IMG/VR virus record: IMGVR_UViG_3300045988_144418
Location: 37,631-101,630 of that record
Direction: 5' to 3' (one strand)
Source: a virus
DNA: 64,000 nt
The notes beneath the pieces are model-generated. The model was given only the letters and a program-made list of their open reading frames with translations. It made no database searches and was not told where the DNA came from. A program made the position numbers and the translations under genes. This document shows, one piece after another, positions 4,722 through 39,801 of the stretch. The number at the start of each line of letters is the position of its first letter. The first letter of the stretch is position 1.

Positions 4722-4752
4722 TCAGTCTGATTAAGTTAGAAATGATTTCGTT

Positions 4753-5280: not shown

Positions 5281-5281
5281 T

Positions 5282-5677: not shown

Positions 5678-6047
5678 GTTAAAGTTACTGGCTGACTCCT
5701 TAGGAATAGGTGCTGTGTCAGCGGAGGTTGAAAAGATTATGCTTCAGGAACAGCAGGTGTCAACGGAAACGGTTCTTCGTCTGCTTGGCGAGTTGCTGTC
5801 AATGCTGTCCACTATGGGCAGAAGGATGATGCACTTTAGGGACAGGACAGGCCAGATTCTTTCCAAGGGCTTTATCATTATGTTCCGTAAGAGTGAGACA
5901 GTTGAGGGTGAGCCTACTATTGTTATCAATGACTTTGGTGCAGGACTAAAGGCGGAGAACAACCCTGTTATAGAACTGGAGCTTGTTTATGACGATGTTG
6001 ACGTGCGTGATGAGGACTTTGACACGTTATTATTAATGAAAAACTAA
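5658..6047 (+). CDS. hypothetical protein
   Basis: ORF track 5646..6047 starts at TTG; first ATG is at 5658. No motif recognised, and its position beside HNH/terminase is the only context. Confidence 0.4.
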   Translation: MKEILIKLKLLADSLGIGAVSAEVEKIMLQEQQVSTETVLRLLGELLSMLSTMGRRMMHFRDRTGQILSKGFIIMFRKSETVEGEPTIVINDFGAGLKAENNPVIELELVYDDVDVRDEDFDTLLLMKN

Positions 6048-6060
6048 AAATGATTTTGTT

Positions 6061-6720
6061 ATGAATTCCACGATTAGGTACATAATTGTTGGTGACAGTG
6101 AGACTGGAGGGCTTCCTAATAAGGGCAAACAGGCTTTCTATGACATTGCACTGTGTGAATTTGCCTTTGTCGTTATAGATATTCAGGAAATGAAAGTGGT
6201 GGAGGAATGGAGTACACTCTTTAGACCCTATAAGGACAATCTTGAGTATAACCCCCAGGCACTTGAGGTCAATGGTCTTACGGTTGAACAGTTGCAGAAA
6301 AGCGGTGATGACCTGAAGAACATCTATAAGGAAATGATCATGTTGTTTAAGAAGTATAAGAATCCTCGTATAGGAGCGGTACTTGCAGGACATAATTTTC
6401 AGCCGTTTGATATGCCTTTTCTCACTAATATGTTTGAGTTTTGCGGTGATAGCATCTGGAATTATGTCACGTTCGTGGAGGACACCATGAAGCTGGCTTG
6501 GTATCGTGCCAAGGAGCAGGAAAATTACAAGCTCGGAACGTGCTGTCGTATGGAGGGTGTTGATTTGGTTAACGCTCATCGTGCGCTTGCTGACACAAAG
6601 GCGAACGCCCTGTTGCTTTTGAAATACATTTCCTATATGCGTGGCTCTGGAGAGGGTTCGAGCGTTGCGATTCCAAGAATGAAGCCGTCTTCCTTTAGAG
6701 AGACCTTTCAACTTGTGTAG
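6061..6720 (+). CDS. DnaQ-like DEDDh 3'-5' exonuclease
   Basis: ExoI VGDSETGG, ExoII HNFQPFDMPFL, ExoIII HRALADTKANA. Confidence 0.75.
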   Translation: MNSTIRYIIVGDSETGGLPNKGKQAFYDIALCEFAFVVIDIQEMKVVEEWSTLFRPYKDNLEYNPQALEVNGLTVEQLQKSGDDLKNIYKEMIMLFKKYKNPRIGAVLAGHNFQPFDMPFLTNMFEFCGDSIWNYVTFVEDTMKLAWYRAKEQENYKLGTCCRMEGVDLVNAHRALADTKANALLLLKYISYMRGSGEGSSVAIPRMKPSSFRETFQLV

Positions 6721-6722
6721 TG

Positions 6723-8822: not shown

Positions 8823-8842
8823 TAAAATAGAAATGATTTTGT

Positions 8843-10381: not shown

Positions 10382-11415
10382 TGAAGTACGATAAGGAGAA
10401 TATTATTGACGAGCTTGGGCTTGTTCCGTTCGGTTCTCAGGGGTGGTTATCGAACAAGGAGATGGTCTGTCCGTTTTGTGGTAAGTCCGGAAAATGGGGT
10501 GTTATATTTAATGATACTGGAGGGGCGACATTTCATTGCTGGAAGTGTCCACGTAAGACTTCTTTGTATGAATTTCTTAAAAAGATAGGTAGAACGGATC
10601 TTGCAAGGGTTACATACACGGCCAAGCCTGATGAGGTGTGCCCAAGGATAGGTGAGGAGCAGACGGAGGAATCACAGTGGATGACCTCCATGGAGTTGCA
10701 GCCTTTGGAGTTGCAGCCTGTTGCGCTTCCATTGCGACTGAAACCACTTGTGGGGGATGAGTATCTTGAAAGCAGGGGGTTCAATGACTATCACTATAGA
10801 CTATTTGAACCATCCTACACAAATACACCACTGGAGCCGAAGTTGAAAAACTATATTGTGTTTAAGATGAAGATGAACGGTGTGTGTGTGGCTTGGTGGG
10901 CGAGAAGTCGTTATTCAAAGGAATGGCATAAGGAGAATCTGGAACTTTATAAGCAGCATAAGGCTGAGCTTGTGCTTCGGTATAGGAACTCAGAAAGCAA
11001 TTTTCAGGACTTGCTTGGTGGTTATGATCAACTTGTTGAGGGTGTTACACAGACAGTGATTCTGGTGGAAGGCATTTTTGATATGATTAATATCACGAAC
11101 ATTCTTGGACTTGCTGATGTGAATGATGTTAAGTGCTGTTTTACATTCGGTAATAGCATAGGAAAGGGACAGATAGAGTCATTGTTGAGGAAAAAAGTTA
11201 GGAATATAGTACTTTTGTATGATGATGGGACAATAGACGAAAGTCGTGAAGCGGCCTTGCGGATGAGGGAACTGTTTGATACTGTGATGGTGGCGGCTAT
11301 ACGACGCAGAGGTGTTGATCCTGGAAACATAGACATAGACTATCTGATGGAGGTGTTGGAGTCAGCGTGTGATTCTCTAACATTCTCTTACAATAGGCTT
11401 GAAATGAAGATTTGA
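10381..11415 (+). CDS. DNA primase (zinc finger + TOPRIM)
   Basis: Zinc ribbon CPFCGKSGKWGV...FHCWKCP. TOPRIM-like VILVEGIFDM ... NIVLLYDDGT. Confidence 0.7.
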   Translation: MKYDKENIIDELGLVPFGSQGWLSNKEMVCPFCGKSGKWGVIFNDTGGATFHCWKCPRKTSLYEFLKKIGRTDLARVTYTAKPDEVCPRIGEEQTEESQWMTSMELQPLELQPVALPLRLKPLVGDEYLESRGFNDYHYRLFEPSYTNTPLEPKLKNYIVFKMKMNGVCVAWWARSRYSKEWHKENLELYKQHKAELVLRYRNSESNFQDLLGGYDQLVEGVTQTVILVEGIFDMINITNILGLADVNDVKCCFTFGNSIGKGQIESLLRKKVRNIVLLYDDGTIDESREAALRMRELFDTVMVAAIRRRGVDPGNIDIDYLMEVLESACDSLTFSYNRLEMKI

Positions 11416-11418
11416 GGT

Positions 11419-11877
11419 ATGAGCAAGGAAATGATTAGGTCTCAGAAGGAATTTATTCACAAGTTGGAAATGGAGTATCTTACACACAAGTTGAGATCAC
11501 TTGTGTATCGTAAGATGAAGTACATAAAGCTCTCCAGAGATATGGCTGTGAAGAAGAAGGAAAAGATTCAGGCACTCGGCATGAAGTTTGGCATTTCTAC
11601 AATGTTTGATACAGGTGTAGAGAAGTTCGTGAATGAGCATTTCTGGAATAAGTGTGGGCTTCCAAATTTTTCCTATAAGGATAGTGAGCAGAAGCGTGTG
11701 CAGGGTAATTATGACGCTTGGTATCTTCTCTATCGTGGGGTTGTGATAATGTATAATGGTGAGCCTTATACTGTTGTAAGCAACAACCCTTCGACAAGGA
11801 CAGTTCAGGTGCTTGATGGTTGTTTTGCAATGAGTTATGATGAGATATCTCTTGTGAACGATTATGACTGGGAATAA
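11419..11877 (+). CDS. hypothetical protein
   Basis: 152-aa ORF. No motif recognised. Confidence 0.45.
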   Translation: MSKEMIRSQKEFIHKLEMEYLTHKLRSLVYRKMKYIKLSRDMAVKKKEKIQALGMKFGISTMFDTGVEKFVNEHFWNKCGLPNFSYKDSEQKRVQGNYDAWYLLYRGVVIMYNGEPYTVVSNNPSTRTVQVLDGCFAMSYDEISLVNDYDWE

Positions 11878-11904
11878 CGTTTTACTAAAAAGACAAAATA
11901 AAAG

Positions 11905-12360
11905 ATGATTAAGGTAAGGATTTTTAATGAAAGTAAGTTTCTGGGGTCGGAGTATTTTCCAGAATATAAGAGTTTGGGTGCGTCAGGCGTGGATCTTAGG
12001 GCTGACATCGGTGAGGATATTGTGCTTCATCCAATGCAGCGAATGTTGATTTCAACAGGTCTGCGAATAGCTATTCCTCAGAATTATGAGGCACAGGTTC
12101 GCTCTCGTTCAGGGCTTACAGTGAAGAACGGTGTTATTGTTCTTTCTCCAGGTACCATAGATAGTGATTATAGAGGGGTTATTGGTGTTCCTTTGGCCAA
12201 TCTGGGTGATGAGGATTTTGTAATTCATAGAGGGGATTGTATTGCACAGCTTGTTTTTCAGAAAGTGGAAAGAGTTTGGTTTGAGGGTGTCAGCTCTATT
12301 GAAGCACTTGGTCTAACTGATCGCGGTGAAGGAGGCTTTGGTCATACAGGCGTGAAATAG
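11905..12360 (+). CDS. dut: dUTP diphosphatase (trimeric dUTPase)
   Basis: Canonical motifs GASGVDLRA, SRSGL, GTIDSDYRG, DRGEGGFGHTG. Confidence 0.9.
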   Translation: MIKVRIFNESKFLGSEYFPEYKSLGASGVDLRADIGEDIVLHPMQRMLISTGLRIAIPQNYEAQVRSRSGLTVKNGVIVLSPGTIDSDYRGVIGVPLANLGDEDFVIHRGDCIAQLVFQKVERVWFEGVSSIEALGLTDRGEGGFGHTGVK

Positions 12361-16592: not shown

Positions 16593-17255
16593 ATGGATGA
16601 AAGAACCCCAGTTGAGATATATGCCTTTGTCGGGGTGATTGGCTCCGGCAAGAGCTATCGGCTTGAGCAGATGAAGAGAGAATACAATGGTGTCGGTCAG
16701 GTTGTCATTACCGCTGACTTTTCAGATGGTATTCGAGATCTAACACGTCAGCTTTTGGGGTATGGTGCTAACTTCGGTGATGTGAATTCACAGGAATATC
16801 GTGACTGGAAGGAGAACGTGGCCTGTGTGACAGTTCACAATGGAGCGGTGGTGAATTCTTTCACTGGACGTGATGTGTTGCGTAATGTGGGAGAGTCCAC
16901 GAAGTGTATTGCAGGTCAGAACGTGTGGGCGAGATATACGACACAGTCCTTATATTCACGCATAGCGTATCAGGCATTTCGCTCTGATTTATGTGTGAGT
17001 GGTGTTCGGGTGCTTATAGGGTCAGTGCGATTCAAGTGCGAGGCTCGGAGCATATTTGAGCTCTTTAGCGATGTAGCAGCCAATATGGATAGCTTTATGA
17101 ATCCGTCCTTGCACTTTATATTCTGCGACTATCACTCGTCGAGCTATGATGCGGCAAGTGGTCACGTCAGTGAGGCACTTGCACAGATCGTGTTGAATAC
17201 AGGCAAGTACAAGGATGGTGATGATATCACCGAACTGATAGACACAATGGTATGA
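16593..17255 (+). CDS. P-loop dNMP kinase-like protein
   Basis: N-terminal Walker A YAFVGVIGSGKSY. The ATG at 16593 is 2 nt after the upstream stop. Function assigned by analogy with phage dNMP kinases. Confidence 0.45.
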   Translation: MDERTPVEIYAFVGVIGSGKSYRLEQMKREYNGVGQVVITADFSDGIRDLTRQLLGYGANFGDVNSQEYRDWKENVACVTVHNGAVVNSFTGRDVLRNVGESTKCIAGQNVWARYTTQSLYSRIAYQAFRSDLCVSGVRVLIGSVRFKCEARSIFELFSDVAANMDSFMNPSLHFIFCDYHSSSYDAASGHVSEALAQIVLNTGKYKDGDDITELIDTMV

Positions 17256-20200
17256 GACAGGAATTTGAACAGTATCTACAGAGGAACCTGATGTCATATA
17301 CGGAGGTCAGTCCTTATGTGTATGAAATAGATGGTAGGACATTCGAACTCTATAAGCCTGACAATGATGGCGCATTGTTTGACGATGACTTCAGGTTTAC
17401 AGGCATTCCGGCCAATTTAGCGAGATACACCTCCACTGAGAAAACGGTGGACACACAGTGTGACTTTTATGCCTATAAGTTTGGAGGAGTGTGGTATATG
17501 CTTCCAAGGGATGATAGAGACAAGGTTAAGTTGAAGCGCCTGAAATATCTTGGGGAAGCGGTGCAGGAGATTCCAACACCTGTCTTTATGGGTGTTCATG
17601 GTCAGTATGAGATTATGTCGGGCTCCGGAACGTATGCTGATTGGTGTGCAAAGGCGAAGTTCTACGGTGTTACGACACTTGGTATCTGTGAGAAGAACAC
17701 TTTGTCGGGTGTCTTGAAATTTCAGGTGGAATGTCAGAAGAACGGCCTGAAGCCTGTTATCGGGATGGAATGCACTGTATATGATATTGTCAAGGACTTT
17801 AGGTTCACGGCCAAGGTGTTTGTCAGAAATGAGGTGGGTTGGCAGAGCATCCTCACTATGTCGGAAGCCATTAACTGTGATAATCCTGGGTATATTCTCA
17901 TTGACCAGTTTAGAGAGGAAATAAGCCGAAATGCGGAAGGATTGGTGGTGGTTGCAGACCCCAAGACGACTGACTATGACAAGTTCGCTGAAATCGGTCT
18001 AAAAATAGATTACTATCAACTTGACCCTGTTAGATATGCGGAAGAATCTCGTGATGAAGTGTATTTGAAGAACCTGAGAAAATTTTATCATAGTGGTATG
18101 CTTGCTCTTCCTATGGCTGATGCTTGGTATCTGGACGAGGAGTATAGCTGTATCAGATCGAGACTTGCAAGCATAGGTGGATCTAACTTTTATGACAGTG
18201 ATGATCAGTGGTTTAAGCCGAATGATGTATTGTTCTGTCAGCTTGCTGACATGTTTCCAAGCACGGATGATGGTCTGGGGCTTGCGTACCAGGACTTTTT
18301 AGATGGGCTTGAAAGGTTGATGGATCTTGCTGATAGCATTGGCTTTATCGTGGACACAACCAAACGCCATCTTCTACGCTACATTATGACAGAGGATGAA
18401 GCCGCTAAGTATGTCACCAATGAGGATATGTTCTGGGGGCTTATTGACGAGGGACTTCAGCGGCATCCTGAGCTGATTGAACAGTACGGTGAGGATGTGG
18501 TGATGGAACGCATTGATAGAGAAGTTGGTGTAATTAAGTTGGGGGATACAATCGATTACTTCCTAATTACGAGGGATATTGTGAATTGGTGTCATCATAA
18601 TGATATTATGACAGGTATATCCAGAGGTTCGGCAGGAGGGTGTCTTATCTCGTATCTTCTTGGGATCACAAAGTTGGATCCAATAGGCTATAATCTACTT
18701 TTTGAGAGGTTTTTGAACGAGGGTCGTGTAAAGAAAAGTCTTCCTGATATAGATACGGATTTCCCTGGAGAAGACCGAGGAAAAGTCAAGCAGTATATGG
18801 AACAACGATTTGGGGAGGTTAATGTCTGTTCTGTGGGTACTTATTCCGCCTTGCAGCTGAGAGCGGCTATCAAGGACATGTCTCGTGTGTATGGGCTGGA
18901 GTTTCAAGAGGTGAATGATATGATGAAACTCTTTGCCGTGGATGATCGTAAGCCTGAAGACCTGTTTAGGATAGCGTGTGCACAGCCACGTGTGAAGAAG
19001 TTTGTTAGAGAGCATTCTGACTTGGTGAATGAGGTGATGCTGATTATGCCAGCCCCCAAGGCACGTTCCGTTCACGCCTGTGCCACTATGATATTTCCGA
19101 AGGAGCACGATATGTTTCACTGGACACCTATTCGCAAACAGAACGGAGAGTATGTGACTGAGTGGGAGGGTGGTGAAATGGACGGTGCAGGATTTCTGAA
19201 GAATGATATCTTGGGTATTAAGCAGCTTGATAAATTTCAGAATATGGTGCGTCTTGTCAAGGAGAACGAGGGTGTTGATGTGGATATTTTCAATGTGCCG
19301 CTTGACGATTCAGAGGTGTATCGTTACTTTCAGAACGGCTGGACGGAGGATAATTTTCACTTCGGCTCTCGTGGTTTGACAGGCTACTGTAAGGAGATGA
19401 AGCCTGAAAACATAGAGGACTTGATTGTGGCCATCGCCCTGTATCGTCCTGGAGCAATGGAGAACGGCTTCCATACGGAGTATGTTAAGCGTAAGGAGGG
19501 TGCGCCTGTAAGTTACTTTGTAGGTTCCGAGGAAATTCTTTCCAATACTTATGGGATTTTCTGTTTTCAGGAACAGATCATGGAGTTGTGTAAGCATCTT
19601 GGGGGGCTTTCACTTGTGGAAGCTGATGACGTGCGAAAGGCGATGGTGAAGAAGAAGTACGAAGCACTTCATCAGTATCATCCAAGATTTGTTGACAACT
19701 ATGTGACACAGTTCGGTGTCACGAATGAATATGCTGAAAGTGTGTGGGATGCTATTGACAAGGCTTCCACTTACCTGTTTAACCGTTCTCATGCTGTCGC
19801 CTATGCTCTTACTGGCTATATCTCGCAGTGGATGAAAGTACACTACCCAATAGAATACTGGAGTGTTGCGTTCAAGGAAGCGATGACGGAGGATTACCCT
19901 CGCTATATTGCTGAGATTAACAAGACAGGTGTCTGCACGGTGAGGTCTGTGGATATCAATCTGTCGGGAACAGGCGTGTATATTGACTTTGCGGCCAGAA
20001 CGCTCTATTGGTCTGTCACAGGCGTTAAGCAGGTGGCTGAAAAGGCGGCTACACAGATACTCAAGGAACGTGATGAGAATGGTAGGTATTGGTCTTTGGA
20101 TGACTTTGTGACACGACATAAGTGGAAAGGGTCAGCGGTGAACACGAGGGTTGTGCAGAATCTTATTCTCGCAGGGGCATTTGATGACGTGGAGAACATC

Positions 20201-20734
20201 ACTGATGCCTCTCAGAGGGTGGAACTATTGATATCCTATCTTGCTTCCACAAAAAACAAGTTGAATGAGACTGATCCTATTATAGCAGGGTTTGACATTC
20301 ACAGGAATGATGCTTGGTGGTGGCAGCTTATGCAGAAGAAACTTTCAGGGCTTGCATTCTTTGACTATGCAGGTCTTTATGACAAGGTGAAGCAGTTTTT
20401 CCCTGTTGACTATGAGTATTATACCTTTGAGGAATGTAGTGACGTGGAATATCGTCCTAACAGGGGATATGTCATTGTTGGTGGGTATGTGTCAGCGATA
20501 GACCTGAAAAAAACCAAGAAAGGAGACATTCTATGCCGTATAACACTGGAGAACAACTATGAGTTTCTGGACTTGGTTGTATTCCAGACGGAATATGAGC
20601 GGCTTCAGGAGGAGATTGCTGCAAGCAAGGATAATATCGTGCTTTTGAATGCAACACTTTACTATGACGCACGGAATGATAAAAACGCCTTGCGTGCTGA
20701 TATGGAGACATCCATTGTGACATTTAAGTTATAA
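17252..20734 (+). CDS. dnaE: DNA polymerase III alpha subunit (DnaE-type, N-terminal PHP domain)
   Basis: 1160 aa. PHP start FMGVHGQYEIMSGSGT, palm signature GRVKKSLPDIDTDFP, then GISRGSAGGCLISYLLGITKLDP and FNRSHAVAYA. Confidence 0.85.
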   Translation: MRQEFEQYLQRNLMSYTEVSPYVYEIDGRTFELYKPDNDGALFDDDFRFTGIPANLARYTSTEKTVDTQCDFYAYKFGGVWYMLPRDDRDKVKLKRLKYLGEAVQEIPTPVFMGVHGQYEIMSGSGTYADWCAKAKFYGVTTLGICEKNTLSGVLKFQVECQKNGLKPVIGMECTVYDIVKDFRFTAKVFVRNEVGWQSILTMSEAINCDNPGYILIDQFREEISRNAEGLVVVADPKTTDYDKFAEIGLKIDYYQLDPVRYAEESRDEVYLKNLRKFYHSGMLALPMADAWYLDEEYSCIRSRLASIGGSNFYDSDDQWFKPNDVLFCQLADMFPSTDDGLGLAYQDFLDGLERLMDLADSIGFIVDTTKRHLLRYIMTEDEAAKYVTNEDMFWGLIDEGLQRHPELIEQYGEDVVMERIDREVGVIKLGDTIDYFLITRDIVNWCHHNDIMTGISRGSAGGCLISYLLGITKLDPIGYNLLFERFLNEGRVKKSLPDIDTDFPGEDRGKVKQYMEQRFGEVNVCSVGTYSALQLRAAIKDMSRVYGLEFQEVNDMMKLFAVDDRKPEDLFRIACAQPRVKKFVREHSDLVNEVMLIMPAPKARSVHACATMIFPKEHDMFHWTPIRKQNGEYVTEWEGGEMDGAGFLKNDILGIKQLDKFQNMVRLVKENEGVDVDIFNVPLDDSEVYRYFQNGWTEDNFHFGSRGLTGYCKEMKPENIEDLIVAIALYRPGAMENGFHTEYVKRKEGAPVSYFVGSEEILSNTYGIFCFQEQIMELCKHLGGLSLVEADDVRKAMVKKKYEALHQYHPRFVDNYVTQFGVTNEYAESVWDAIDKASTYLFNRSHAVAYALTGYISQWMKVHYPIEYWSVAFKEAMTEDYPRYIAEINKTGVCTVRSVDINLSGTGVYIDFAARTLYWSVTGVKQVAEKAATQILKERDENGRYWSLDDFVTRHKWKGSAVNTRVVQNLILAGAFDDVENITDASQRVELLISYLASTKNKLNETDPIIAGFDIHRNDAWWWQLMQKKLSGLAFFDYAGLYDKVKQFFPVDYEYYTFEECSDVEYRPNRGYVIVGGYVSAIDLKKTKKGDILCRITLENNYEFLDLVVFQTEYERLQEEIAASKDNIVLLNATLYYDARNDKNALRADMETSIVTFKL

Positions 20735-28261: not shown

Positions 28262-28308
28262 TATAATCGATGTGAAATGATTAAATTTGGGTCGTATATT
28301 AATGCTTT

Positions 28309-28932
28309 ATGATGATGAATACGACACAGATTGTAAGTTCGGCGATTGATACAGGCAAGGCGATTGGCGACGTTGGTATGATGGCCGTTACGGCTGGATT
28401 TTTTCTTGTTCTTTCCGGGATTTTGATGGTGGTGTGCTTTAAGTGGTTCATTCGCCTGATTAATAGCATGCTTCAGGATCAGAAACGAACGATGGAAGAA
28501 CTCTTGAAGGAGACACGAGATCAAAATTCAAAACTTGCGGAACTATCAGAATGTCTTGCTCCTGGAAATCAGTTAAAGACAAAAGTGATTTCAAATGCTT
28601 TCTTTGATTTAGGTGTCGAAAAGGTTTGCCGTGTTATCAAAAAGGTTAGGGCAGAAAATCACATTGTTGACAGGGAAACAACAACGGCAAAGGTTCATAA
28701 ATTGCTGAAGAATTTGCATGATGACAGGAATAGTAAACTGGATTCATTTACTTATTTAGGCCGACCTCTTTCAAGTTACACTGATGAAAAATGGGTTGTT
28801 AAGGTTGCGGAAGTCGTTCTTAGCGAAATTTATAATGAAAATGGAGCTAATGATGAAAGAGCCTGTACAAATGTTACAGCCGTGTATGATCAAATAAAGT
28901 TGGATTTTTATAGTAATATGATGCAGAGATAG
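28309..28932 (+). CDS. hypothetical membrane protein
   Basis: N-terminal TM helix (MMAVTAGFFLVLSGILMVVCF). It is the first gene of the effector cassette. Confidence 0.5.
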   Translation: MMMNTTQIVSSAIDTGKAIGDVGMMAVTAGFFLVLSGILMVVCFKWFIRLINSMLQDQKRTMEELLKETRDQNSKLAELSECLAPGNQLKTKVISNAFFDLGVEKVCRVIKKVRAENHIVDRETTTAKVHKLLKNLHDDRNSKLDSFTYLGRPLSSYTDEKWVVKVAEVVLSEIYNENGANDERACTNVTAVYDQIKLDFYSNMMQR

Positions 28933-28934
28933 TT

Positions 28935-30068
28935 ATGGGTCTTTTTGAATTTATAGCTAAATCACGTTCTGGAGTTTATAAGAATACTTCAGAAAATCGT
29001 AGACTCCATCGTGTGGGGCAAAGATATGGTGAGCAGAGGCAACTGGCGGATGAGGGTGAACTGATTCCAGGAATGCCTAATTTCACCAAGGTGAATCTGA
29101 AGAAGTATTTGTCTGACAAGATAAAGAAACAGGTGGATGACTATATTGTTAATGTCTCAACCACTCCAGGATGGAATAATCCTGAGCAGGTCTCCCTTAT
29201 GGTAAAAGTTGTGCAGAAGCACTTCAATGAAGCTTTTGATGATATGACCAAGGCGCAGAGAGCCTACTGGGTGGAATTGGCAAAGCGGCTTTTGGGGCGA
29301 ATGGAATCTCTTAATGCAGGTGGCGACAAGGAGGAATCCGTTAAGCCTGAAGAGACACCAAAGCCTACATTGAAGGAACGTGTTGACAATTTTGAACAGA
29401 AGGAAAAAGCGAAGAATATCTTTGAACAGGCAGCACAGAAGTACGGAATTGAACATGGTAAGCCGATGTCCATTGATAGAGCTGATCGTAAGCACGCCAA
29501 CCCGAAATTTCTGACGCTTGTAGATGGAAGTTTTCGTCCATACACTTCAAACTGTCAGACCTGTGTGGTTGCCTATGAACTTCGTAAGAGGGGTTATGAC
29601 GTTGAAGCAAAGGGTGTTGGTGTTAAGCCGAAGTCCTATGTAAATAATTTTCAAAGAGAAATGGCCTATGATAGTACCTTTGCTTTTGCTGATAAGGATA
29701 TAGATCTTATTAGGCCGAACTTTACAGGTGAGATTAAGTTCAATACGGATAAGGGTCGTAGGCAGTTTCGAATGAAAATTTTTGACGCCATAAAAGAGCA
29801 GGGAACTTATTTCTTATCTTTTAAGAACAAGGGGCGTCAGAGTGGTCATATTGTGGTGCTTGAACACACGACTAATAATTTTTTGTTGATAGATCCACAG
29901 TCCAATAGAAGAATTGATCTTAAATCTGACGAATTCATGCAGTATCTTGCTGGAGTGGATGTTACACATAAAAATAATAGACTATTTAGGGTGAATGACT
30001 TGACATTCAAACCTGAGGTATTTTCTGTGATGGAAAAGGCAAATACAGAACCAGATATATATGATTAA
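28935..30068 (+). CDS. effector with shared N-terminal leader and C-terminal papain-fold toxin-like (glutamine-deamidase-like) domain
   Basis: N-terminus MGLFEFIAKSRSGVYKNTSENRRLHRVGQRYG is shared with the 30355 gene. The C-terminus has TSNCQTCVVAYELRKRGYDV ... SGHIVVLEHTTNNFLLIDPQSN, a Cys...His...Asp pattern that resembles, from memory, the Pfam 'papain fold toxin 1'. Confidence 0.5.
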   Translation: MGLFEFIAKSRSGVYKNTSENRRLHRVGQRYGEQRQLADEGELIPGMPNFTKVNLKKYLSDKIKKQVDDYIVNVSTTPGWNNPEQVSLMVKVVQKHFNEAFDDMTKAQRAYWVELAKRLLGRMESLNAGGDKEESVKPEETPKPTLKERVDNFEQKEKAKNIFEQAAQKYGIEHGKPMSIDRADRKHANPKFLTLVDGSFRPYTSNCQTCVVAYELRKRGYDVEAKGVGVKPKSYVNNFQREMAYDSTFAFADKDIDLIRPNFTGEIKFNTDKGRRQFRMKIFDAIKEQGTYFLSFKNKGRQSGHIVVLEHTTNNFLLIDPQSNRRIDLKSDEFMQYLAGVDVTHKNNRLFRVNDLTFKPEVFSVMEKANTEPDIYD

Positions 30069-30297
30069 TGAAAAGGATATTTTGAAAATCTGCGAAGCGG
30101 CAGGTTGGAAAGGCGGCGAACTGATTTACGGTGGGTTTGCTGACGGCAAGTATTATGTCTCCTATGGAGCTGAGAGTGACGGTGCAGAACTTGCGTGTGT
30201 GGGCGCTCCTATAATTCTTGTCGTGGAGAACGGCAGATGTAGGACAGCTACTGACAAGGAATGGGTTTATTTTTATGAAAATTTTGTGAAAGATTAA
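30061..30297 (+). CDS. small protein, candidate immunity/antidote to the upstream effector
   Basis: 78 aa, overlapping the upstream stop by 8 nt (translational coupling). No motif recognised. Confidence 0.4.
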   Translation: MINEKDILKICEAAGWKGGELIYGGFADGKYYVSYGAESDGAELACVGAPIILVVENGRCRTATDKEWVYFYENFVKD

Positions 30298-30307
30298 GGA
30301 TTAATCC

Positions 30308-30337
30308 TTGGATATTTCAGAATAATGATTATATTTG
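30308..30337 (+). promoter_or_regulatory. conserved phage promoter, copy 3
   Basis: ggattaatccTTGGATATTTCAGAATAATGAT-TATATTTG, upstream of the SAS-like gene. Confidence 0.65.
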
Positions 30338-30354
30338 CGTAGTAAAATTCAATT

Positions 30355-31083
30355 ATGGGTTTATTTGAATACATAGTTAAGTCCAGATCAGGTGTCTATA
30401 AGGATAATTCTGAAAATAGGCGGCTTCACAGGGCTGGACTGCAATATGGTCAGAAAAAGCAGCAGGAAAGCGTTCCTGATGTAAACAAGAAGGATCTTGA
30501 ACTTGCGGAAGCAAAGGTTAAGAAAATGCTTGTCGTGAAGCAGAACTTTGATGATGTTTCACAGGCGGTGTGTCAGGAGGTTGGCTGTATTGTTTCTCCT
30601 ACTAATATTAAAAAGCCCGTAAGAATTGCTCAGAAAATGGCTTCTGATGGTTCTACTATTGATGAGATTAAGGATGTTATGCGTAACACCTTTGTTGTTA
30701 ATAGTGACGATGATGTTGGCAAGGTTATAGAAGCCATATCCAAGCATTATAAAGTTGTTAGGGTAAAGTATCAAACGCCCGACAGGTTCGCTGGATATAG
30801 CGGCAATATTGTCAATGTGGAGCTTCCTAATGATGAAATTGGTGAAATGCAGGTGAATACGCCACAAATGATATTTGGCAAGGAAGTTGAACGTGATGCC
30901 AGAATGATTTTGGGTGATGGCCTATGGGAACGATTGAAAGCCAATGCAGGAAATCTTATTCCAGGACTTGGTCATAGGATGTATGAGGTGCTTCGGGATG
31001 ATTCCATTGACGATGAAAGGCTTGATATTGTCGAACGCAATAGTAGAATTTATTATGATAGAATTAGAAAGATTTCGCTATGA
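30355..31083 (+). CDS. effector with shared N-terminal leader and RelA/SpoT-like nucleotidyltransferase (small alarmone synthetase / toxSAS-like) domain
   Basis: N-terminus MGLFEYIVKSRSGVYKDNSENRRLHRAGLQYG. Synthetase-like motifs: KKPVRIAQKM, IKDVMRNTFVV, AGYSGNIVNVEL, IGEMQVNTPQMIF (compare DIxGxRV, GYRSxH, EIQIRT). Confidence 0.6.
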   Translation: MGLFEYIVKSRSGVYKDNSENRRLHRAGLQYGQKKQQESVPDVNKKDLELAEAKVKKMLVVKQNFDDVSQAVCQEVGCIVSPTNIKKPVRIAQKMASDGSTIDEIKDVMRNTFVVNSDDDVGKVIEAISKHYKVVRVKYQTPDRFAGYSGNIVNVELPNDEIGEMQVNTPQMIFGKEVERDARMILGDGLWERLKANAGNLIPGLGHRMYEVLRDDSIDDERLDIVERNSRIYYDRIRKISL

Positions 31084-31328
31084 GAACTGTAACTAACAAG
31101 GAACTGGGGGAGTTGCTCCGCTCCAATGAAATGGTCTATCTTCTGGACGACACTGATGAAATCGCATGGGGATTTCTCGGTGATGGAAAGAACCGTAGAA
31201 GAGTGGTGAGCAAGGCAAAGGGCAGGGAACCTGTTGAGCACAATCCCAAGCAGCAGAACTCCAATAGTATGATTCGTGCCTATCTGAATAAGGATGTGAT
31301 GACCAAGGAGGAGTTTGAAAACTATTAG
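31080..31328 (+). CDS. small protein, translationally coupled to the SAS-like gene (candidate antitoxin/immunity)
   Basis: 82 aa, with an ATGA start/stop overlap at 31080-31083. Confidence 0.4.
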   Translation: MRTVTNKELGELLRSNEMVYLLDDTDEIAWGFLGDGKNRRRVVSKAKGREPVEHNPKQQNSNSMIRAYLNKDVMTKEEFENY

Positions 31329-31336
31329 AATTTTCC

Positions 31337-31366
31337 TTGGAAATTCAAGAACAATGACTATATTTG
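31337..31366 (+). promoter_or_regulatory. conserved phage promoter, copy 4
   Basis: TTGGAAATTCAAGAACAATGAC-TATATTTG, upstream of the alarmone hydrolase gene. Confidence 0.65.
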
Positions 31367-31394
31367 CACTGTGAAAATTAAAAATGATTTTGTT

Positions 31395-31847
31395 ATGATT
31401 AAGATTGTCACTAAATCTCAGGACAGATTTCGTCAGGCCGTTGAAATAGCTGTCCAGGCACATCAGGGTCAGGTTGACCGAAATGGTGTTCCGTATATCT
31501 GTCATTCTATTGCCGTTGCTCAAAAGTGCTCATTCTATACAGCCAAGTGTGTGGCTATGCTTCACGATGTGCTGGAGGACACGGAGGTTACGGCACAGGA
31601 TCTATTTAAGATGGGTGTTGAGGAATATATCATTGAATGTGTGGAAAAATTGACGCACGATCCAAAGGTTCCATATCTGGATTATATTCAAAGCATAATT
31701 GACACCAGAGATGCTAATATCATATCGGTTAAGTACGCTGATCTATGTGATAATCTCGATCCTACGAGGGGTGGAATGAATGAAAAGAAAGTGCCTCTGT
31801 ATCGCAAGGCCAGAAGAATGATGGAGGAAGCATTATGTTTCATATAG
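31395..31847 (+). CDS. HD-domain small alarmone hydrolase (SpoT/Mesh1-like)
   Basis: AVEIAVQAHQGQVDRNGVPYICHSIAVAQ and AMLHDVLEDTEVT are the SpoT hydrolase HD signature. The ATG at 31395 follows aaaatgattttgttATG; the track start at 31371 is a GTG. Confidence 0.75.
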   Translation: MIKIVTKSQDRFRQAVEIAVQAHQGQVDRNGVPYICHSIAVAQKCSFYTAKCVAMLHDVLEDTEVTAQDLFKMGVEEYIIECVEKLTHDPKVPYLDYIQSIIDTRDANIISVKYADLCDNLDPTRGGMNEKKVPLYRKARRMMEEALCFI

Positions 31848-35835: not shown

Positions 35836-36299
35836 ACATATACACTGACGGCAGCTGTAACGCACGAATTAGAGTAGGTGGCTACGGTGTGTATGTTAAG
35901 GAGGAAGGACGTGAAACGGTTATTCATCAGGGCTATACTCACACCACGACGGCACGGATGGAAATGAGGGCTGTGCTTCATGCGATACGCTTGGTATCCA
36001 ACGAATCCATGGACGTTTATATTCATTCTGATTCTCAATTTGTGGTAAATGCGTTTAAGGAAGGATGGCTGTCCAGATGGCGGCTATCTAATTTTGTTGG
36101 GGTGAAGAACACTCCTATCTGGAAGGCTATTGCGCTTGAATTGGCAAAAAGACCACAGGTTCATTTTCACATTAGATGGCTTCACGGACACCAGAAGGAT
36201 ATTCTGGACGAGACCGTGTTCGGGAACACGGTGGCGGATGCACTTGCCGACTACAAGAATCAGGAATCATACATTAAAGACACTGATGACAATATATGA
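35823..36299 (+). CDS. rnhA: ribonuclease HI
   Basis: IDIYTDGSC, TNARMEMRAVLHAI, IHSDSQFVVNA, GNTVADALA give the DEDD order of RNase H1. Confidence 0.85.
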   Translation: MRRIDIYTDGSCNARIRVGGYGVYVKEEGRETVIHQGYTHTTTARMEMRAVLHAIRLVSNESMDVYIHSDSQFVVNAFKEGWLSRWRLSNFVGVKNTPIWKAIALELAKRPQVHFHIRWLHGHQKDILDETVFGNTVADALADYKNQESYIKDTDDNI

Positions 36300-37750
36300 C
36301 ACCAGACAAGTATCAACAGGCGGTGATTGATGAATATAGGCGCACCAATCACAATATCTTTATAAGCGCGACGGCAGGAAGTGGCAAGACCACCTGTCTT
36401 TTGGAACTTGCCAAGAGAACTCCTCCTATTAAGTCTTCCATCTTTCTTGCATTTAACAAGTCTATTGCCGAGGAACTTGGCAGGAAGCTTCCTCCTACGG
36501 TTAAGGCTATGACGCTTCACGGATGTGCACTGGCGGCTCTTTGTAAGGCGTTTTCTCTGAAGTTTACAATCAAGGAAAACAAGTATTTTAGTATAGCGAG
36601 TGAGATTCTGGAATCACATAAGGTGCATTTCAAGCGGATTCCTGGACTTGCCGTGCGTATGTGCAGACTGCACGATCTTATGCGATACAATCTTGTCAGT
36701 GGTGGTGTGGATGAGATCTGTGTCCTTGCTGAGAGATACGGTGAGGACTGTGATGAGAAAATGGCTGGATACGCCTATGAGCTGTATTCAGCGGCAAGGC
36801 GAGCGGCTGACACGTTCTTTTCAGGTGGCGGTCAGGGAACCATCTCCATGGACTTCACGGATATGCTTGTGTGGGCGGTGAAATATGTACCTCAAGCGGA
36901 GTTCAAGCAGTATAGTGTGGTGATGTGTGATGAGTGTCAGGACATTAGTGCATTACAATATGAGTTGATAAAGAGATTGAAGACTCCAAAGGGGCGTCTT
37001 GTGGCTGTGGGTGATCCAAGACAGTCCATCTATTCATTTCAGGGTTCTAATCTGGATTCGCTCCATGCCATACAGAATTCGCTTAATACAGTGACGCTAC
37101 CTTTGTCCATCACCTATCGTTGTGCCAAGGCCATTGTCAAGGAGGCTCAAAGGGTGTTTCCGGAGGGCATAGAAGCGGCTCCGACAGCTGTTGAGGGTAC
37201 GGTCACGAGGGGGCGACTTAATGAGGCCGTTGAGGGTGACTTCATCCTATGTCGTAATAATGCACCATTGATAGATGCTTGGTTGAAGCTTGTTAAGATG
37301 GGTCGTAGGTGCGTGATACTCGGCAAGGATTTCGGTGATGCTCTTATGGAGCTTCTGGACAATGCGGAGTGTGTGGATGACCTGGAGAAGCCGCTTGTGG
37401 ATCTTCTGGAGCGACTGCATCGTAAGGGCATTGAAAGACCTGAGAGAACAGAGGCATACGCCAATCTGGATGAAAAGGTGAATATTCTGCTGAACCTGTT
37501 TGACTTCTTTGGTAGCCTTGAGGCAGTGAGAGAAAGAATTTTTGATATTTTTGTGGAAAACGCTGATGAGAAGCACGTTATTTTATCAACAATTCACAAA
37601 TCCAAGGGGCTTGAAGCTGATAGAGTGTTCTTCCTTGAACCAGAGTTGATTCCAAGCAGGTTTGCGACAACGGAATTGTCTATGTATGCCGAGAAGTGCC
37701 TTATGTTTGTGGCTATTACACGAGCGAAGAAAGAATTGATTTACATATAG
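36296..37750 (+). CDS. UvrD/PcrA-like superfamily-1 helicase (copy 1)
   Basis: Walker A ISATAGSGKTT, motif II VMCDECQD, VGDPRQSIYSFQG, TIHKSKGLEADRVF, VAITRAK. Confidence 0.8.
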   Translation: MTPDKYQQAVIDEYRRTNHNIFISATAGSGKTTCLLELAKRTPPIKSSIFLAFNKSIAEELGRKLPPTVKAMTLHGCALAALCKAFSLKFTIKENKYFSIASEILESHKVHFKRIPGLAVRMCRLHDLMRYNLVSGGVDEICVLAERYGEDCDEKMAGYAYELYSAARRAADTFFSGGGQGTISMDFTDMLVWAVKYVPQAEFKQYSVVMCDECQDISALQYELIKRLKTPKGRLVAVGDPRQSIYSFQGSNLDSLHAIQNSLNTVTLPLSITYRCAKAIVKEAQRVFPEGIEAAPTAVEGTVTRGRLNEAVEGDFILCRNNAPLIDAWLKLVKMGRRCVILGKDFGDALMELLDNAECVDDLEKPLVDLLERLHRKGIERPERTEAYANLDEKVNILLNLFDFFGSLEAVRERIFDIFVENADEKHVILSTIHKSKGLEADRVFFLEPELIPSRFATTELSMYAEKCLMFVAITRAKKELIYI

Positions 37751-38184: not shown

Positions 38185-39801
38185 ATGAACACAAGAATTC
38201 TTTTTGGAAAGGACGCAAGAGCAGCTCTGCTCGCTGGAGCGGAGGAGCTCTATTCAGCGGTGGCGTCCACACTCGGACCGAGAGGTCACACGGTTGCGAT
38301 TGATAAGGGGTACGGCATACCTCATATCACCAAGGATGGTGTGACGGTGGCTCGTGCCTATGACATTGATGATCCGATGAAGCGAATGGGCGCAACACTC
38401 GTTAAGATGGTGGCTGCAAAGACCTGTGATCAAGCAGGTGACGGAACCACCACGGCCACGATATTGTCCTACGCTATGATGAAGCGTGGTGTGTGTGGCT
38501 CGGTGAACATACAGAATCCGCATGAGTATCGCAGAGGTATGGAAGACGCACTGGATGAGGCTGTCAGCTATATTAAGTCCAGTGCTGTAAAGATAGAGCC
38601 TGACGAGATTGACAAAATCAGACAGGTGGCCAAGGTGTCAGCCAACGGTGATGATATGGTGGCTGATCTTATTACATCGGCGATAGAGAGTGTCGGCAAT
38701 GACGGCATCATTACCGTTGAGGAGAGCACCAAGGGAGATGAATCCACGGTGGAGGTTACAACTGGCTTTCAGTGGAGTAAGGGGATTATAAATCCATATT
38801 TTGTTACTGACAGTGAGCGAATGGAGTGTGTTCTGGATAAGCCGTATGTTCTTATCTGGGGTCAAAACATCAATTATGTTCAGGAGATTCTTGCTGTGGT
38901 GCAGACTGTATATACAGCCAAGAGATCCCTTTTGATTGTAGCTCCAAACGCTTCCAATGACGTGATAAAGTTTCTTGTCACAAACGTTCAGCAGAATAAC
39001 GGTCTAAAGGCATGTTTTGTAAAGGCTCCAGGATTCGGTCAGATGCAGAAAGACTTGATGCAGGATTTGGCTGTAAAGGTGGGCGGCAAAATTGTTGGTG
39101 AGGAATACGGTAATGCCATGGAGTCATTTGGAACTGACTGGCTTGGTGAGGTGGACAAGGCCACAATCTCAGCCAATAGAACCGTTCTCGTGGGCGGTGC
39201 TGGAAAGTCTGTGGATATAGATGCTCGAATAGAATTCATCAGGAATGAAATGGCTGAAAACTCCAACACCTATGATAGAGAAAAGTATAGAGAGCGCATC
39301 AGTCGTCTTACAGGCGGTGCGGCTGTCATCTATGTAGGTGCGGACAGTGAAGTGGAGATGAATGAGCGCAAGGATAGAGTGGATGACGCCATTGCGGCCA
39401 CCAGAGCCGCTCTTGATGAGGGTTATGTTCCGGGAGGGGGGACAATTCAGTATAAGATAGCCAAGATTCTGGAAAGGTCACTGGATGACAACCCAAAATG
39501 GAGCACCGATTATTTGGAGGGCTACCGTACTGTGATTGATGCCCTGAAGAAACACTTTCACATTCTATGTGAGAATGCAGGAGTGGAGCCTATTCGGATT
39601 GAGGTTATGATGGACTTGAAGTCCACGGCATTACAGCAGGGCTACAATCCATTTACTAACAGTATAGAGGATATGTATAAGGCTGGCGTGATAGATCCAG
39701 CCAAGGTCACACGAACATCACTGGAGAATGCTGTGTCGGTGGCCGTTCAGTTCCTCGGTATGTCGTGCGCTATGTCAGGTGAGGAGGCTAAGAAAGTATG
39801 A
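38185..39801 (+). CDS. groL: GroEL-family chaperonin (Cpn60)
   Basis: DAGDGTTTATIL-type ATP motif (QAGDGTTTATIL), ITVEEST, AALDEGYVPGGG; length 538 aa. Confidence 0.9.
   Translation: MNTRILFGKDARAALLAGAEELYSAVASTLGPRGHTVAIDKGYGIPHITKDGVTVARAYDIDDPMKRMGATLVKMVAAKTCDQAGDGTTTATILSYAMMKRGVCGSVNIQNPHEYRRGMEDALDEAVSYIKSSAVKIEPDEIDKIRQVAKVSANGDDMVADLITSAIESVGNDGIITVEESTKGDESTVEVTTGFQWSKGIINPYFVTDSERMECVLDKPYVLIWGQNINYVQEILAVVQTVYTAKRSLLIVAPNASNDVIKFLVTNVQQNNGLKACFVKAPGFGQMQKDLMQDLAVKVGGKIVGEEYGNAMESFGTDWLGEVDKATISANRTVLVGGAGKSVDIDARIEFIRNEMAENSNTYDREKYRERISRLTGGAAVIYVGADSEVEMNERKDRVDDAIAATRAALDEGYVPGGGTIQYKIAKILERSLDDNPKWSTDYLEGYRTVIDALKKHFHILCENAGVEPIRIEVMMDLKSTALQQGYNPFTNSIEDMYKAGVIDPAKVTRTSLENAVSVAVQFLGMSCAMSGEEAKKV

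Follow-up and report, generated by a model that had tools for sequence, protein, structure and literature searches.

The locus described here probably encodes, along with the antidotes, two phage polymorphic toxins of an N-terminal class not described before, in which a constant leader would act as a docking or packaging peptide. It lies in a 64,000-nucleotide stretch of DNA from a large gut Bacteroides-type phage (the window; positions 37,631 to 101,630 of IMG/VR record IMGVR_UViG_3300045988_144418). Effectors A and B share the leader and carry different toxin domains, and each is followed by a small ORF, A' or B' (Table 1). An earlier note on this DNA had proposed a constant leader, swappable toxin domains and adjacent coupled antidotes. 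This organization is borne out by 827 clusters of leader-bearing proteins, by toxin swaps at the same slot in related phages and by co-inherited A'- and B'-like ORFs.

Table 1. Features of the two-effector locus, in window coordinates.
Feature	Position	Strand	Remarks
TAAATTTG, Bacteroidetes-type -7 promoter element upstream of first operon	28282..28289	+	read from sequence
207-aa protein, N-terminal hydrophobic segment, function unknown	28309..28932	+	phrog_19698, E 6e-75
Effector A, 377 aa: leader, helical module, papain-fold glutamine-deamidase toxin domain	28935..30068	+	
Leader of A, 32 aa (MGLFEFIAKSRSGVYKNTSENRRLHRVGQRYG)	28935..29030	+	25/32 identity with leader of B
Conserved helical module of A, residues ~42-130 (PN..KVNLKKYLS ... 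FN..FD...K..RA..LY)	29058..29324	+	
Gln_amidase (PF15644) toxin domain of A, residues 206-324	29550..29906	+	34.3 bits, cut-off 24.1
A', 78-aa candidate immunity protein for deamidase	30061..30297	+	8-nt overlap with A, translationally coupled
61-nt direct repeat, left copy (promoter box, TATATTTG at 30330-30337)	30305..30365	+	repeat D1
Effector B, 242 aa: leader, short linker, Tas1/Apk-type (p)ppApp synthetase toxin domain	30355..31083	+	
Leader of B, 32 aa	30355..30450	+	25/32 identity with leader of A; also putative 5' homology arm for cassette exchange
Apk ((p)ppApp synthetase) domain of B, residues 58-239	30526..31071	+	phmmer to Tas1 6OX6
B', 82-aa candidate immunity protein for Apk	31080..31328	+	ATGA overlap with B, translationally coupled
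61-nt direct repeat, right copy (promoter box, TATATTTG at 31359-31366)	31334..31394	+	repeat D1
Aph1-like HD-domain (p)ppApp hydrolase gene	31371..31847	+	phrog_990; start GTG 31371 or in-frame ATG 31395

The leader is conserved at the protein level

The leaders of A and B were compared at the protein and DNA levels. Only 66 of the 96 underlying nucleotides are identical, and different codons are used at 14 of the 25 conserved residues. What is conserved is therefore the protein sequence, and the similarity does not come from a recent DNA repeat, in line with the divergence at synonymous positions pointed out in the earlier note. The two proteins had also been described as unrelated after the leader, and in BLASTP the N-terminus alone aligns, with identity at noise level past about residue 36. 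A six-frame phmmer search of the whole window detected the leader in the A and B ORFs only (cross-hit E ~1e-14; next-best match E ~0.8).

The core of the leader reads KSRSGVY.D..ENRRLHRVGQ.YG, with about 20 nearly invariant residues. It is hydrophilic and basic, and inspection of the sequence revealed no signal-peptide or lipobox features. The AF2 model of A leaves the leader unstructured (pLDDT ~50) beside an all-helical module modelled with confidence (pLDDT 91-96), the pattern expected if the peptide folds on binding a partner. The helical module recurs in 55 of about 157 motif proteins and gave no fold match in the PDB. The leader had no match among Pfam, PHROG, NCBIfam or PADLOC models, and the motif is not quoted in the literature searched; these searches agree with the earlier view that no family with this leader had been described.

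Toxin domains and candidate antidotes

Searches with the two C-terminal domains, of the kind suggested in the earlier note, upheld both of its domain readings. The reading of A as a papain-fold deamidase with a Cys/His/Asp pattern agrees with its PF15644 match, above the gathering score. The domain aligns with the C-termini of MuF-like proteins of Bacteroides phages (28.5% identity, E 8e-10), and the strings NCQTC, SGHIV and IDPQ are common to A and the deamidase C-terminus of the phage p00 MuF-like protein. The RelA/SpoT-synthetase-like motifs noticed in B correspond to a match with PF04607 at 25.9 bits, just under the Pfam cut-off of 27; this shortfall sits less easily with the preferred explanation. 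B residues 58-239 match residues 256-435 of Tas1 (6OX6_A) in phmmer (E 9.3e-17), the only significant PDB sequence match of B, and a GE(I/M)QVN(S/T)P(E/Q)MI block is conserved between the two. By homology the toxin domain of B thus belongs with Tas1 and not with the housekeeping RSH/SAS enzymes.

The overlaps of the two small ORFs with the stop codons of the effector genes were confirmed as first read. A' has 18 homologous clusters; its homologues of 84-88 aa come after portal-linked leader-Gln_amidase genes with the same 8-nt overlap. B' has 76, and ORFs homologous to it come after Apk genes at locus L012 (29% identity, E 2e-5) and at L020-22. B' is thus encoded right after its toxin and co-inherited with it. 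Position and co-inheritance are what point to B' as a candidate antidote. By sequence and model it is not detectably Tis1-like: phmmer gave no match to Tis1, and Foldseek with the best model, a confident alpha/beta fold at pLDDT 90.8 from a shallow alignment whose five models ranged from 48 to 91, returned nothing below E 0.4 and did not recover Tis1.

The HD protein, encoded by a third linked gene downstream, has the '(p)ppApp hydrolase' 7SMG as its best PDB match (E 3e-20). The specificity signature of Aph1 comprises D24, R96, D116, R119, K133 and Y134, and D24 and R119 have been shown to set specificity (PMC10083569). In the HD protein D24, N114, D116 and R119 are conserved and a Ser stands opposite R96; the alignment does not cover K133 and Y134. 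The HD gene is found in L013-L016, relatives that have no Apk, and is missing from L047. It belongs to the core genes of the lineage and is not a strict part of the B cassette. This loose coupling to B and the lack of Tis1 similarity in B' count somewhat against the preferred explanation.

Toxin and antidote genes vary together at defined slots

The promoter element upstream of the first operon was called on TAnnTTTG, which we take to be the Bacteroidetes-type -7 consensus, and repeat D7 ties this TAAATTTG box to a box at 30324-30344. The two copies of repeat D1 (74% identity, spacing 1029 nt) bracket the B-B' cassette, and the left copy is its 5' boundary. Among close relatives, B-B' is missing from L013 and L014 (window 30353-31333 absent), a leader-Zeta toxin occupies the position in L015 and L016, and B is found in L017; homology of L016 extends to window position 30439 and then breaks. 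The B position is a real cassette slot. Slot A likewise holds Apk in L020-22 and a Zeta toxin in L047, and the antidote genes travel with their toxin domains. Directly before leader genes with deamidase, Apk or Zeta payloads (L001-5, L013-17, L020-22, L047) there is a homologue of the 207-aa gene, which is thus conserved on the 5' side of the toxin slot.

Homopolymer frameshifts split the leader from the payload in several relatives. It may be that the effectors can be dispensed with or that the assemblies are imperfect; the frameshifts are a point against the preferred explanation.

The leader is widespread and linked to the portal gene

The earlier proposal to look for other proteins with this leader and to catalogue their C-termini was followed with a leader profile. 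It matched 827 protein clusters (clusters at 50% identity), 194 of them with E<=1e-10, with the motif at the protein start or internal and with many different payloads; among the best 150 hits of the search, 84 clusters have a single N-terminal leader copy. Domains fused to the motif include Gln_amidase, ADPrib_exo_Tox, Zeta_toxin, RelA_SpoT (Apk), NUDIX and Kinase-PolyVal. Phage_Mu_F (Pfam) gave no match among 119 motif-bearing proteins scanned, and the motif is absent from the MuF-deamidase protein of Bacteroides phage p00; the leader is therefore not a fragment of MuF.

Leader genes occur as tandem sets in phages cultured on B. thetaiotaomicron (SJC03 and the DAC series). Carriers of the family have genomes of about 100 kb and encode their own replication machinery. 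The strict motif was matched once in 185,579 cellular genomes, in a 60-aa fragment of a Bacteroides MAG, and with the motif so nearly absent the carriers appear not to be resident prophages. They are large, apparently virulent phages of a dominant gut genus, Bacteroides.

Most often, leader genes stand directly before the portal gene. At about 30 loci on viral contigs a gene X with two internal motifs is followed by a gene Y, one or two small ORFs and then the portal gene; gene Y has an N-terminal leader and a variable C-terminus, Gln_amidase or ART-like among others. At L011 the gene for a 1411-aa motif protein has a 626-aa ORF, uncharacterised, on one side and the gene for the major capsid protein on the other, and the motif is also found inside large polyvalent proteins encoded in head modules. 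One 106.5-kb contig holds both an A homologue (L014) and a portal-linked pair (L018), where a separate, toxin-less MuF-like protein is encoded after the portal gene. As leader carriers usually lie beside the portal gene, the leader is probably a tag that loads cargo into the virus particle. The portal-linked loci and the unstructured model are consistent with a capsid-targeting, ejection or docking peptide, by analogy with known targeting sequences.

A and B themselves sit outside the head module, in the replication/repair block, where SbcCD/RuvC-like genes and the ligase gene flank them, with their own promoter boxes, a location less easily squared with packaging. They could instead be intracellular toxin-antitoxin or host-takeover modules that are never packaged and act only in the producing cell, for example in host shut-off, superinfection exclusion or abortive infection against rival phages, with the leader docking a common regulator such as a chaperone, a protease (as a degron), the membrane protein of 207 aa encoded upstream or some conserved target in the host. 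Classical toxin-antitoxin systems also include toxins of the Zeta, RelA/SpoT-like and deamidase kinds, and the early/replication-type surroundings of A and B, their own promoters and the constant 207-aa 5' neighbour of the slot would all be in keeping. A related motif also occurs in animal Ser/Thr kinases as tandem arrays, with up to 13 stretches in eukaryotic kinases, where capsids are irrelevant; its ligand may be more general than a phage head protein. We nevertheless regard this alternative as unlikely. No PADLOC defence model matched any of the six proteins, the usual place of leader genes is next to the portal gene, and the motif is built into the polyvalent proteins of head modules. Moreover, the order of toxin first and antidote second behind a trafficking-type N-terminus is the polymorphic-toxin pattern, and elsewhere these payloads occur as fusions to MuF, a head protein (PMC11699363).

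Warfare between bacteria is the classical role of polymorphic toxins, and the leader might make the infected cell release or export the toxins, for use against neighbouring bacteria or the animal host; they would then arm the phage-host pair against competitors instead of being injected. A role of this kind has been proposed for the MuF toxin Bxa, which, as cited in PMC10083569 and PMC11699363, is reported to act outside the producer cell and to confer a colonisation advantage. The character of the leader, hydrophilic, basic and with no export signal, speaks against such a route, as does the scarcity of the strict motif in cellular genomes, since the carriers appear not to be resident prophages arming a lineage. 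In addition, toxins of the (p)ppApp synthetase, Zeta and deamidase types have to reach the cytoplasm of the target cell. Export is thus very improbable.

It is equally improbable that the motif is mainly a site that the prohead protease recognises and cleaves, a processing linker for removing an N-terminal propeptide and for cutting polyvalent proteins into their separate domains, rather than a docking element: it does occur between domains (P0019: NUDIX 146-254, motifs at 289-319 and 547-574) and T4 capsid-targeting sequences combine targeting and cleavage (PMC9026906), but its nearly invariant residues far exceed what a protease site typically needs, the eukaryotic kinases carry it in tandem arrays, and such a role would still imply encapsidation and so refine the packaging explanation, not replace it.

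Proposed mechanism

Under the packaging explanation, the leader would dock a head component from the portal module (portal, core/scaffold or packaged DNA), and the capsid would take up leader-tagged proteins and deliver them to the next host along with the DNA, like MuF fusions and proteins with the T4 capsid-targeting sequence. After entry the toxins may halt the host for a time, until freshly synthesised antidotes neutralise them. The B enzyme is predicted to pyrophosphorylate ATP/ADP to (p)ppApp; A' and B' would be specific, binding-type antidotes, and the Aph1-like HD enzyme a general, enzymatic one that hydrolyses (p)ppApp. New cassettes of payload and antidote could be exchanged by recombination, with leader and promoter box as the 5' arm and the next promoter box as the 3' arm. 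Packaging, ejection, toxicity and neutralisation are the proposed part of this scheme, which builds on the observed domain identities, polymorphism, co-inheritance of toxin and antidote, and linkage to the portal gene. A bolder possibility, which we hold tentatively and by analogy, is that the motif of about 25 residues is a portable capsid-loading and ejection tag, the functional counterpart of the T4 capsid-targeting sequence, with which gut Bacteroides phages of one large clade would fill their virions with interchangeable toxins and enzymes. A leader that does act as a packaging tag could also be put to practical use, to load particles of Bacteroides phages with proteins and to deliver arbitrary cargo into Bacteroides. 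The locus also raises the question why a lytic phage keeps ATP-depleting and other toxins alongside antidotes.

Comparison with known systems

Polyvalent proteins of phages and conjugative elements are predicted to be packaged and injected (PMC5512222), and the motif lies inside large multi-domain proteins of this kind (NUDIX, Kinase-PolyVal, Zeta, ART) encoded in head modules. A and B, unlike them, are small and carry a single payload. The terms 'short motif' and 'linker' are absent from the text of PMC5512222, and the leader motif is not described there.

The T4 capsid-targeting sequence of the internal proteins IPI-III and Alt is, like the leader, a short N-terminal peptide common to otherwise unrelated proteins of a single phage, and it suffices to load diverse cargo into the head for injection (PMC9026906). 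It has about 10 residues, is cleaved by gp21, and its targeting and cleavage are experimentally proven, whereas the leader has about 32 residues and its role is proposed by analogy. The two show no demonstrated sequence relationship, and the leader motif is found at internal positions and as tandem arrays as well.

The T6SS effector Tas1/Apk1 (6OX6) has a toxin domain homologous to that of B, with the immunity gene Tis1 immediately downstream, as in B-B'. Trafficking depends there on a PAAR domain for the T6SS, in place of which B has the leader, and Tis1 and B' are unrelated in sequence and predicted fold.

The closest parallels are the MuF toxins, among them Apk2-IapK/Tis1-Aph1 and the MuF-glutamine deamidase of Bacteroidales (PMC10083569, PMC11699363, PMC12226406). 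Their payload families are those of A and B (deamidase and Tas1/Apk-type synthetase), and in the Apk case the order is also the same: toxin, small immunity ORF, Aph1-type hydrolase. For Apk2, BcTis1 and Aph1 the toxin domain was toxic in E. coli and both antidotes protected (PMC10083569). Bacteroidales MuF toxins carry ART, glutamine-deamidase and Apk2 payloads with a small ORF after each (PMC11699363). Binding-type immunities are specific and hydrolases interchangeable (PMC12226406). Both MuF toxins and the leader family combine a constant N-terminus with variable C-termini, and in A and B, as in MuF toxins, a variable C-terminal toxin domain is followed by at least one gene for a (here candidate) immunity protein. 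Leader-family members adjoin the portal gene as MuF toxins do, although A and B themselves do not. The two systems differ in that A and B have no MuF domain (no Pfam MuF match at E<=1) and the p00 MuF toxin has no leader. The constant part here, unlike MuF, is an unstructured peptide of about 32 aa with or without a helical module of about 90 aa. MuF toxins belong to temperate phages, whereas leader carriers are phages of about 100 kb with a motif nearly absent from cellular genomes, and the Apk2 system has a Tis1-type immunity, to which B' showed no likeness in sequence or model.

The toxin and antidote content is thus already known from the MuF toxins of Bacteroidales prophages, and the novelty is the leader. 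Polymorphic toxin families are named after the N-terminal trafficking module (PMC12226406), and MuF is the only phage module named in the polymorphic-toxin literature cited here. The leader would be a second, much smaller and widespread phage trafficking module. If it is indeed a tag, polymorphic toxins, those with (p)ppApp synthetase among them, would gain a third trafficking class beside the ones based on PAAR and MuF.

Effectors A and B share a leader conserved as protein

The ORFs previously placed at this locus were recovered at the same positions and with the same overlaps. They comprise two effectors, A and B, each followed by a small coupled ORF (A' and B'), between a 207-aa gene and an HD gene. 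A and B agree at 25 of their opening 32 residues. The earlier note had taken this leader to be conserved as protein and not as DNA, and the comparison bears it out: 66 of the 96 nucleotides are identical and different codons are used at 14 of the 25 conserved residues. Likewise, the likeness was confirmed to end with the N-terminus, on which alone the BLASTP alignment of A with B rests. Within the window, a six-frame phmmer scan found the leader in these two ORFs only (cross E ~1e-14, next best ~0.8). Codon divergence, the six-frame scan and the N-terminus-only alignment thus indicate that the likeness is real and that selection acts on the peptide. The same comparison rules out a recent duplication or DNA repeat (nucleotide and codon divergence) and chance similarity (cross E value). 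No match of the locus to phage genomes was obtained by megablast. The opening residues MGLFEFIA may resemble the T4 CTS (..EFIAE); the conserved leader core sits downstream of them and this possible resemblance was given no weight.

Coordinates of features in the window and in compared loci
Feature	Location	Length	Remarks
207-aa gene	28309-28932	207 aa	5' of A
A	28935-30068	377 aa	leader effector
A'	30061-30297	78 aa	8-nt overlap with A
B	30355-31083	242 aa	leader effector
B'	31080-31328	82 aa	ATGA overlap with B
HD gene	31371-31847		3' of B'
Repeated intergenic box CCTTGGA.ATT..AGAA.AATGA.TATATTTGC	30305-30365, 31334-31394, also 28276-28296		holds Bacteroidetes-type TAnnTTTG element
Polymerase	17252-20734	1160 aa
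UvrD-like helicases, paralogous	36296-37750 and 57650-59143		both phrog_1967
GroEL-type chaperonin	38185-39801		phrog_5725, E 1e-141
Leader-Zeta gene, L016	6409-7662
Leader-Zeta gene, L015	7368-8627
Leader/payload split, L001	10001-10730
Leader/payload split, L003	10001-10731
Leader/payload split, L005	10001-11121 and 11417-12146
Leader/payload split, L006	10001-11156
Tandem leader-variant genes, SJC03 (L052, MT074146)	6938-11377		3-4 genes
Tandem leader-variant genes, DAC19 (L053, MT074139)	4578-12041		3-4 genes
Intein in PolIII-alpha-like polymerase, L001	1-376		Intein_splicing; DNA_pol3_alpha
Intein in ORF 3' of portal gene, L008	11209-13218	669 aa	Intein_splicing

The intein-bearing polymerase belongs to a close relative of the window; the other intein lies in a different lineage, in an ORF that is presumably the terminase.

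Toxin domains of A and B and the HD gene

The guess that A carries a papain-fold deamidase was upheld by Pfam, as residues 206-324 match Gln_amidase (papain-fold toxin 1; 34.3 bits, cut-off 24.1). Among phage proteins, this domain is closest to the C-terminal parts of MuF-like minor head proteins from Bacteroides phages (tblastn, 28.5% identity, E 8e-10). No MuF domain was detected by Pfam in A or B. The leader is ruled out as a piece of MuF toxins, since the MuF-like protein of one Bacteroides phage (p00) bears a deamidase C-terminus without any trace of it. Comparison of A, A' and B' with PDB sequences gave no significant match.

For B, the suggested RelA/SpoT-like domain was also supported: residues 85-178 match RelA_SpoT at 25.9 bits, just under the cut-off of 27, and residues 58-239 match the Tas1 toxin domain (PDB 6OX6, E 9.3e-17), the sole significant PDB match, with a GE(I/M)QVN(S/T)P block kept between the two. 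A genome scan with this domain gave no confirmed match. The best solved relative of the HD protein is 7SMG, a '(p)ppApp hydrolase' (E 3e-20), which outranks all Rel/SpoT and SAH entries. Relative to Aph1, D24, N114, D116 and R119 are kept and R96 is not; D24 and R119 are the pair by which Aph1 was shown to be specific for adenine (PMC10083569). Comparison with L013, L014, L016, L020 and L047 located the HD gene in relatives without the Apk toxin; it is missing from L047, a relative with the Zeta toxin only. The HD gene belongs to the core of the lineage. Its Aph1-like product, a predicted hydrolase, may also act on (p)ppApp of other origin, a counter-defence against host or rival toxins beyond self-immunity.

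Small ORFs are coupled to their toxin domains

Homologous clusters number 18 for A' and 76 for B'. ORFs like A' (84-88 aa) come after leader-Gln_amidase genes in a separate portal-linked lineage, again with an 8-nt overlap (e.g. L036, L050); in L020-22, ORFs like B' come after the Apk genes, again overlapping by 4 nt. In L012 (MT835636), a fragment from an unrelated gut phage, an Apk gene that lacks the leader, an ORF of 88 aa and an HD gene come in the order seen in the window; identities are 31% to B, 29% to B' (E 2e-5) and 43% to the HD protein. This recurrence after the same toxin types indicates that the small ORFs travel with their toxin domains. No likeness of B' to Tis1 was detected: no sequence match was found, and Foldseek with its model (pLDDT 90.8) returned nothing below E 0.4 and no Tis1.

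Polymorphism of the effector slot

Several viral contigs are 81-96% identical to the window in DNA. L013 and L014 are without 30353-31333 (B and B'), and the HD gene directly follows A'. At the position of B, L017 carries B, and a leader-Zeta toxin gene encoding 417-419 aa stands there in L015 and L016. The window and L016 are homologous through the intergenic box up to leader codon 28; the homology is then interrupted and picks up again 17 nt upstream of the B' end. In more distant syntenic loci the 207-aa gene is followed by an HD gene, a leader-Apk gene (39% identical to B, E 5e-54) and a B'-like ORF (L020-22), or by a leader-Zeta toxin without HD gene (L047). Displacement of this kind is typical of polymorphic toxins.

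The B-B' cassette is flanked by the box as a 61-nt direct repeat with a spacing of 1029 nt. The box sequences suggest separate promoters for the operon of the 207-aa gene, A and A', for B and B', and for the HD-ligase genes; they would also be the arms for the recombination by which cassettes are gained and lost. Their TAnnTTTG elements, the Bacteroidota promoter consensus, point to a Bacteroidota host.

The leader-Zeta proteins extend ~145 residues beyond the Zeta domain, and in L016 there is no space for a separate small ORF before window homology resumes. Any antidote to them may form part of the toxin protein or come from another locus.

In L001, L003, L005 and L006, homopolymer-length differences split the leader from its payload. 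A single programmed frameshift site is ruled out, as position and tract differ in each case (A4 to A5, A5 to A8, a G9 tract, G2 to G3, a C6 tract). A word-indexed search with the leader returned only proteins of 43-77 aa, which are leader ORFs truncated in this manner. Errors of assembly, decay of toxic genes and phase variation could each account for the splits.

Spread and architecture of the leader family

The search for further leader proteins proposed earlier was run with a profile from eight leaders against 1.84 billion representative proteins: 827 clusters matched at E<=1e-3, of which 194 reached E<=1e-10. They share the core KSRSGVY.D..ENRRLHRVGQ.YG, and the leader varies in its first 5-10 residues. 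Among the best 150 matches, 84 clusters bear the leader once, at the N-terminus of proteins 39-804 aa long; 46 have two or three motif copies, often interdomain, and 22 have tandem arrays. Domains joined to the leader include Gln_amidase, ADPrib_exo_Tox, Zeta_toxin, RelA_SpoT, NUDIX and Kinase-PolyVal (Pfam); the majority of members have no Pfam match. A second recurrent module follows the leader in A (residues ~42-130); 55 of ~157 motif proteins have it and B does not, and the toxin domain, if any, lies C-terminal to it. AlphaFold2 modelled the leader without a stable fold (pLDDT ~50) and the module as a helical bundle (pLDDT 91-96), for which Foldseek with the leader-plus-module model returned only generic helical bundles (E>1) and no PDB fold relative. 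Leader and module matched no Pfam, PHROG, NCBIfam or PADLOC model in any protein scanned, and the motif strings occurred in no paper of the literature library. The strict motif had one match in 185,579 cellular genomes, a 60-aa remnant in a Bacteroides MAG.

Tandem runs of leader-variant genes occur in SJC03 and DAC19, cultured B. thetaiotaomicron phages of 167-179 kb. The genes are at 6938-7783, 9830-10738 and 10754-11377 in SJC03 (L052) and at 4578-5423, 6024-6716, 6959-8023 and 11097-12041 in DAC19 (L053). Their variant, ..LNLSSF....EKG.Y.D.P.NRKLGRVGQ.Y, is followed by divergence; one gene has a P-loop kinase-like domain, SJC03 has an additional 54-aa fragment, and all are annotated hypothetical. 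No virion proteome for SJC or DAC phages was found in the literature library. A related motif, Y(V/A)DNa.NR.LGRVGmp.GS, is repeated 4-13 times in tandem, with Ser/Gly-rich linkers between the copies, on the N-terminal side of the kinase domain in animal 'DDB_G0267686-like' Ser/Thr kinases (P0009, Biomphalaria pfeifferi KAK0061970.1; P0049, Hydractinia XP_057303847.1; 20 further array-type clusters). As a phage polyvalent protein (P0102) joins the motif to Kinase-PolyVal, an old phage-eukaryote link is conceivable.

Leader genes upstream of the portal gene

The comparison covered 39 loci from IMG/VR detected by the leader, plus loci reached by protein look-ups. About 30 share one layout: gene X, gene Y, one or two small ORFs, and the portal gene. 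X encodes a domain of ~90 aa at the N-terminus and, internally, two copies of the motif. In L018, X spans 4363-5925 and the portal gene 8375-10093. Y encodes the leader at the N-terminus, followed by a C-terminal part of 199-724 aa, which is Gln_amidase in L036, L046 and L050. The C-terminus of the 724-aa Y protein (L008, L024) is ADP-ribosyltransferase-like by sequence motifs only, Pfam having found nothing in its close relative P0153. X and the small ORFs matched no PADLOC or NCBIfam model. In L018 a MuF-like minor head protein gene lies 3' of the portal gene, and in L011 a 1411-aa protein (DUF5661 and two motifs) is encoded between an uncharacterised 626-aa ORF and an SU10-type major capsid protein gene. 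An A homologue (L014) and a portal-linked X-Y pair (L018) lie 40 kb apart on a single 106.5-kb contig. The phage of the window probably has such a pair past the window end.

Discussion

These results establish a family of polymorphic effectors headed by a short, constant leader; two satellite members of it lie in the window with their antidotes. The polymorphic toxin-antidote reading is very probable. That the leader specifically loads its cargo into the virion is put forward tentatively, its chances being even at best; the combined statement is moderately likely. The leader would be a docking peptide that takes cargo into the head. The situation of A and B in the replication block, and the related motif arrayed in animal kinases, speak against this. 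In another possible role, the leader would act inside the cell by binding a common regulator or target. Head loading by docking is favoured by a leader that is common to several unrelated proteins of one genome, is modelled as unstructured, replaces MuF on the same payloads and is linked to the portal gene.

The leader module, its spread and the portal-linked two-gene arrangement are undescribed in the resources searched. The toxins and antidotes are already known, since the MuF literature describes the same set. MuF-fused Apk2 of a B. caccae prophage has a Tis1-like immunity gene and Aph1 downstream; its toxin domain poisons E. coli, and the Tis1-like immunity protein and Aph1 each give protection (PMC10083569). 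Bacteroidales MuF toxins carry an ADP-ribosyltransferase, a glutamine-deamidase or Apk2, with a small ORF after each (PMC11699363). Binding-type immunities are toxin-specific and hydrolases are interchangeable (PMC12226406). MuF fusions and T4 capsid-targeting sequences load proteins into the head, as is proposed here for the leader (PMC9026906; PMC5512222).
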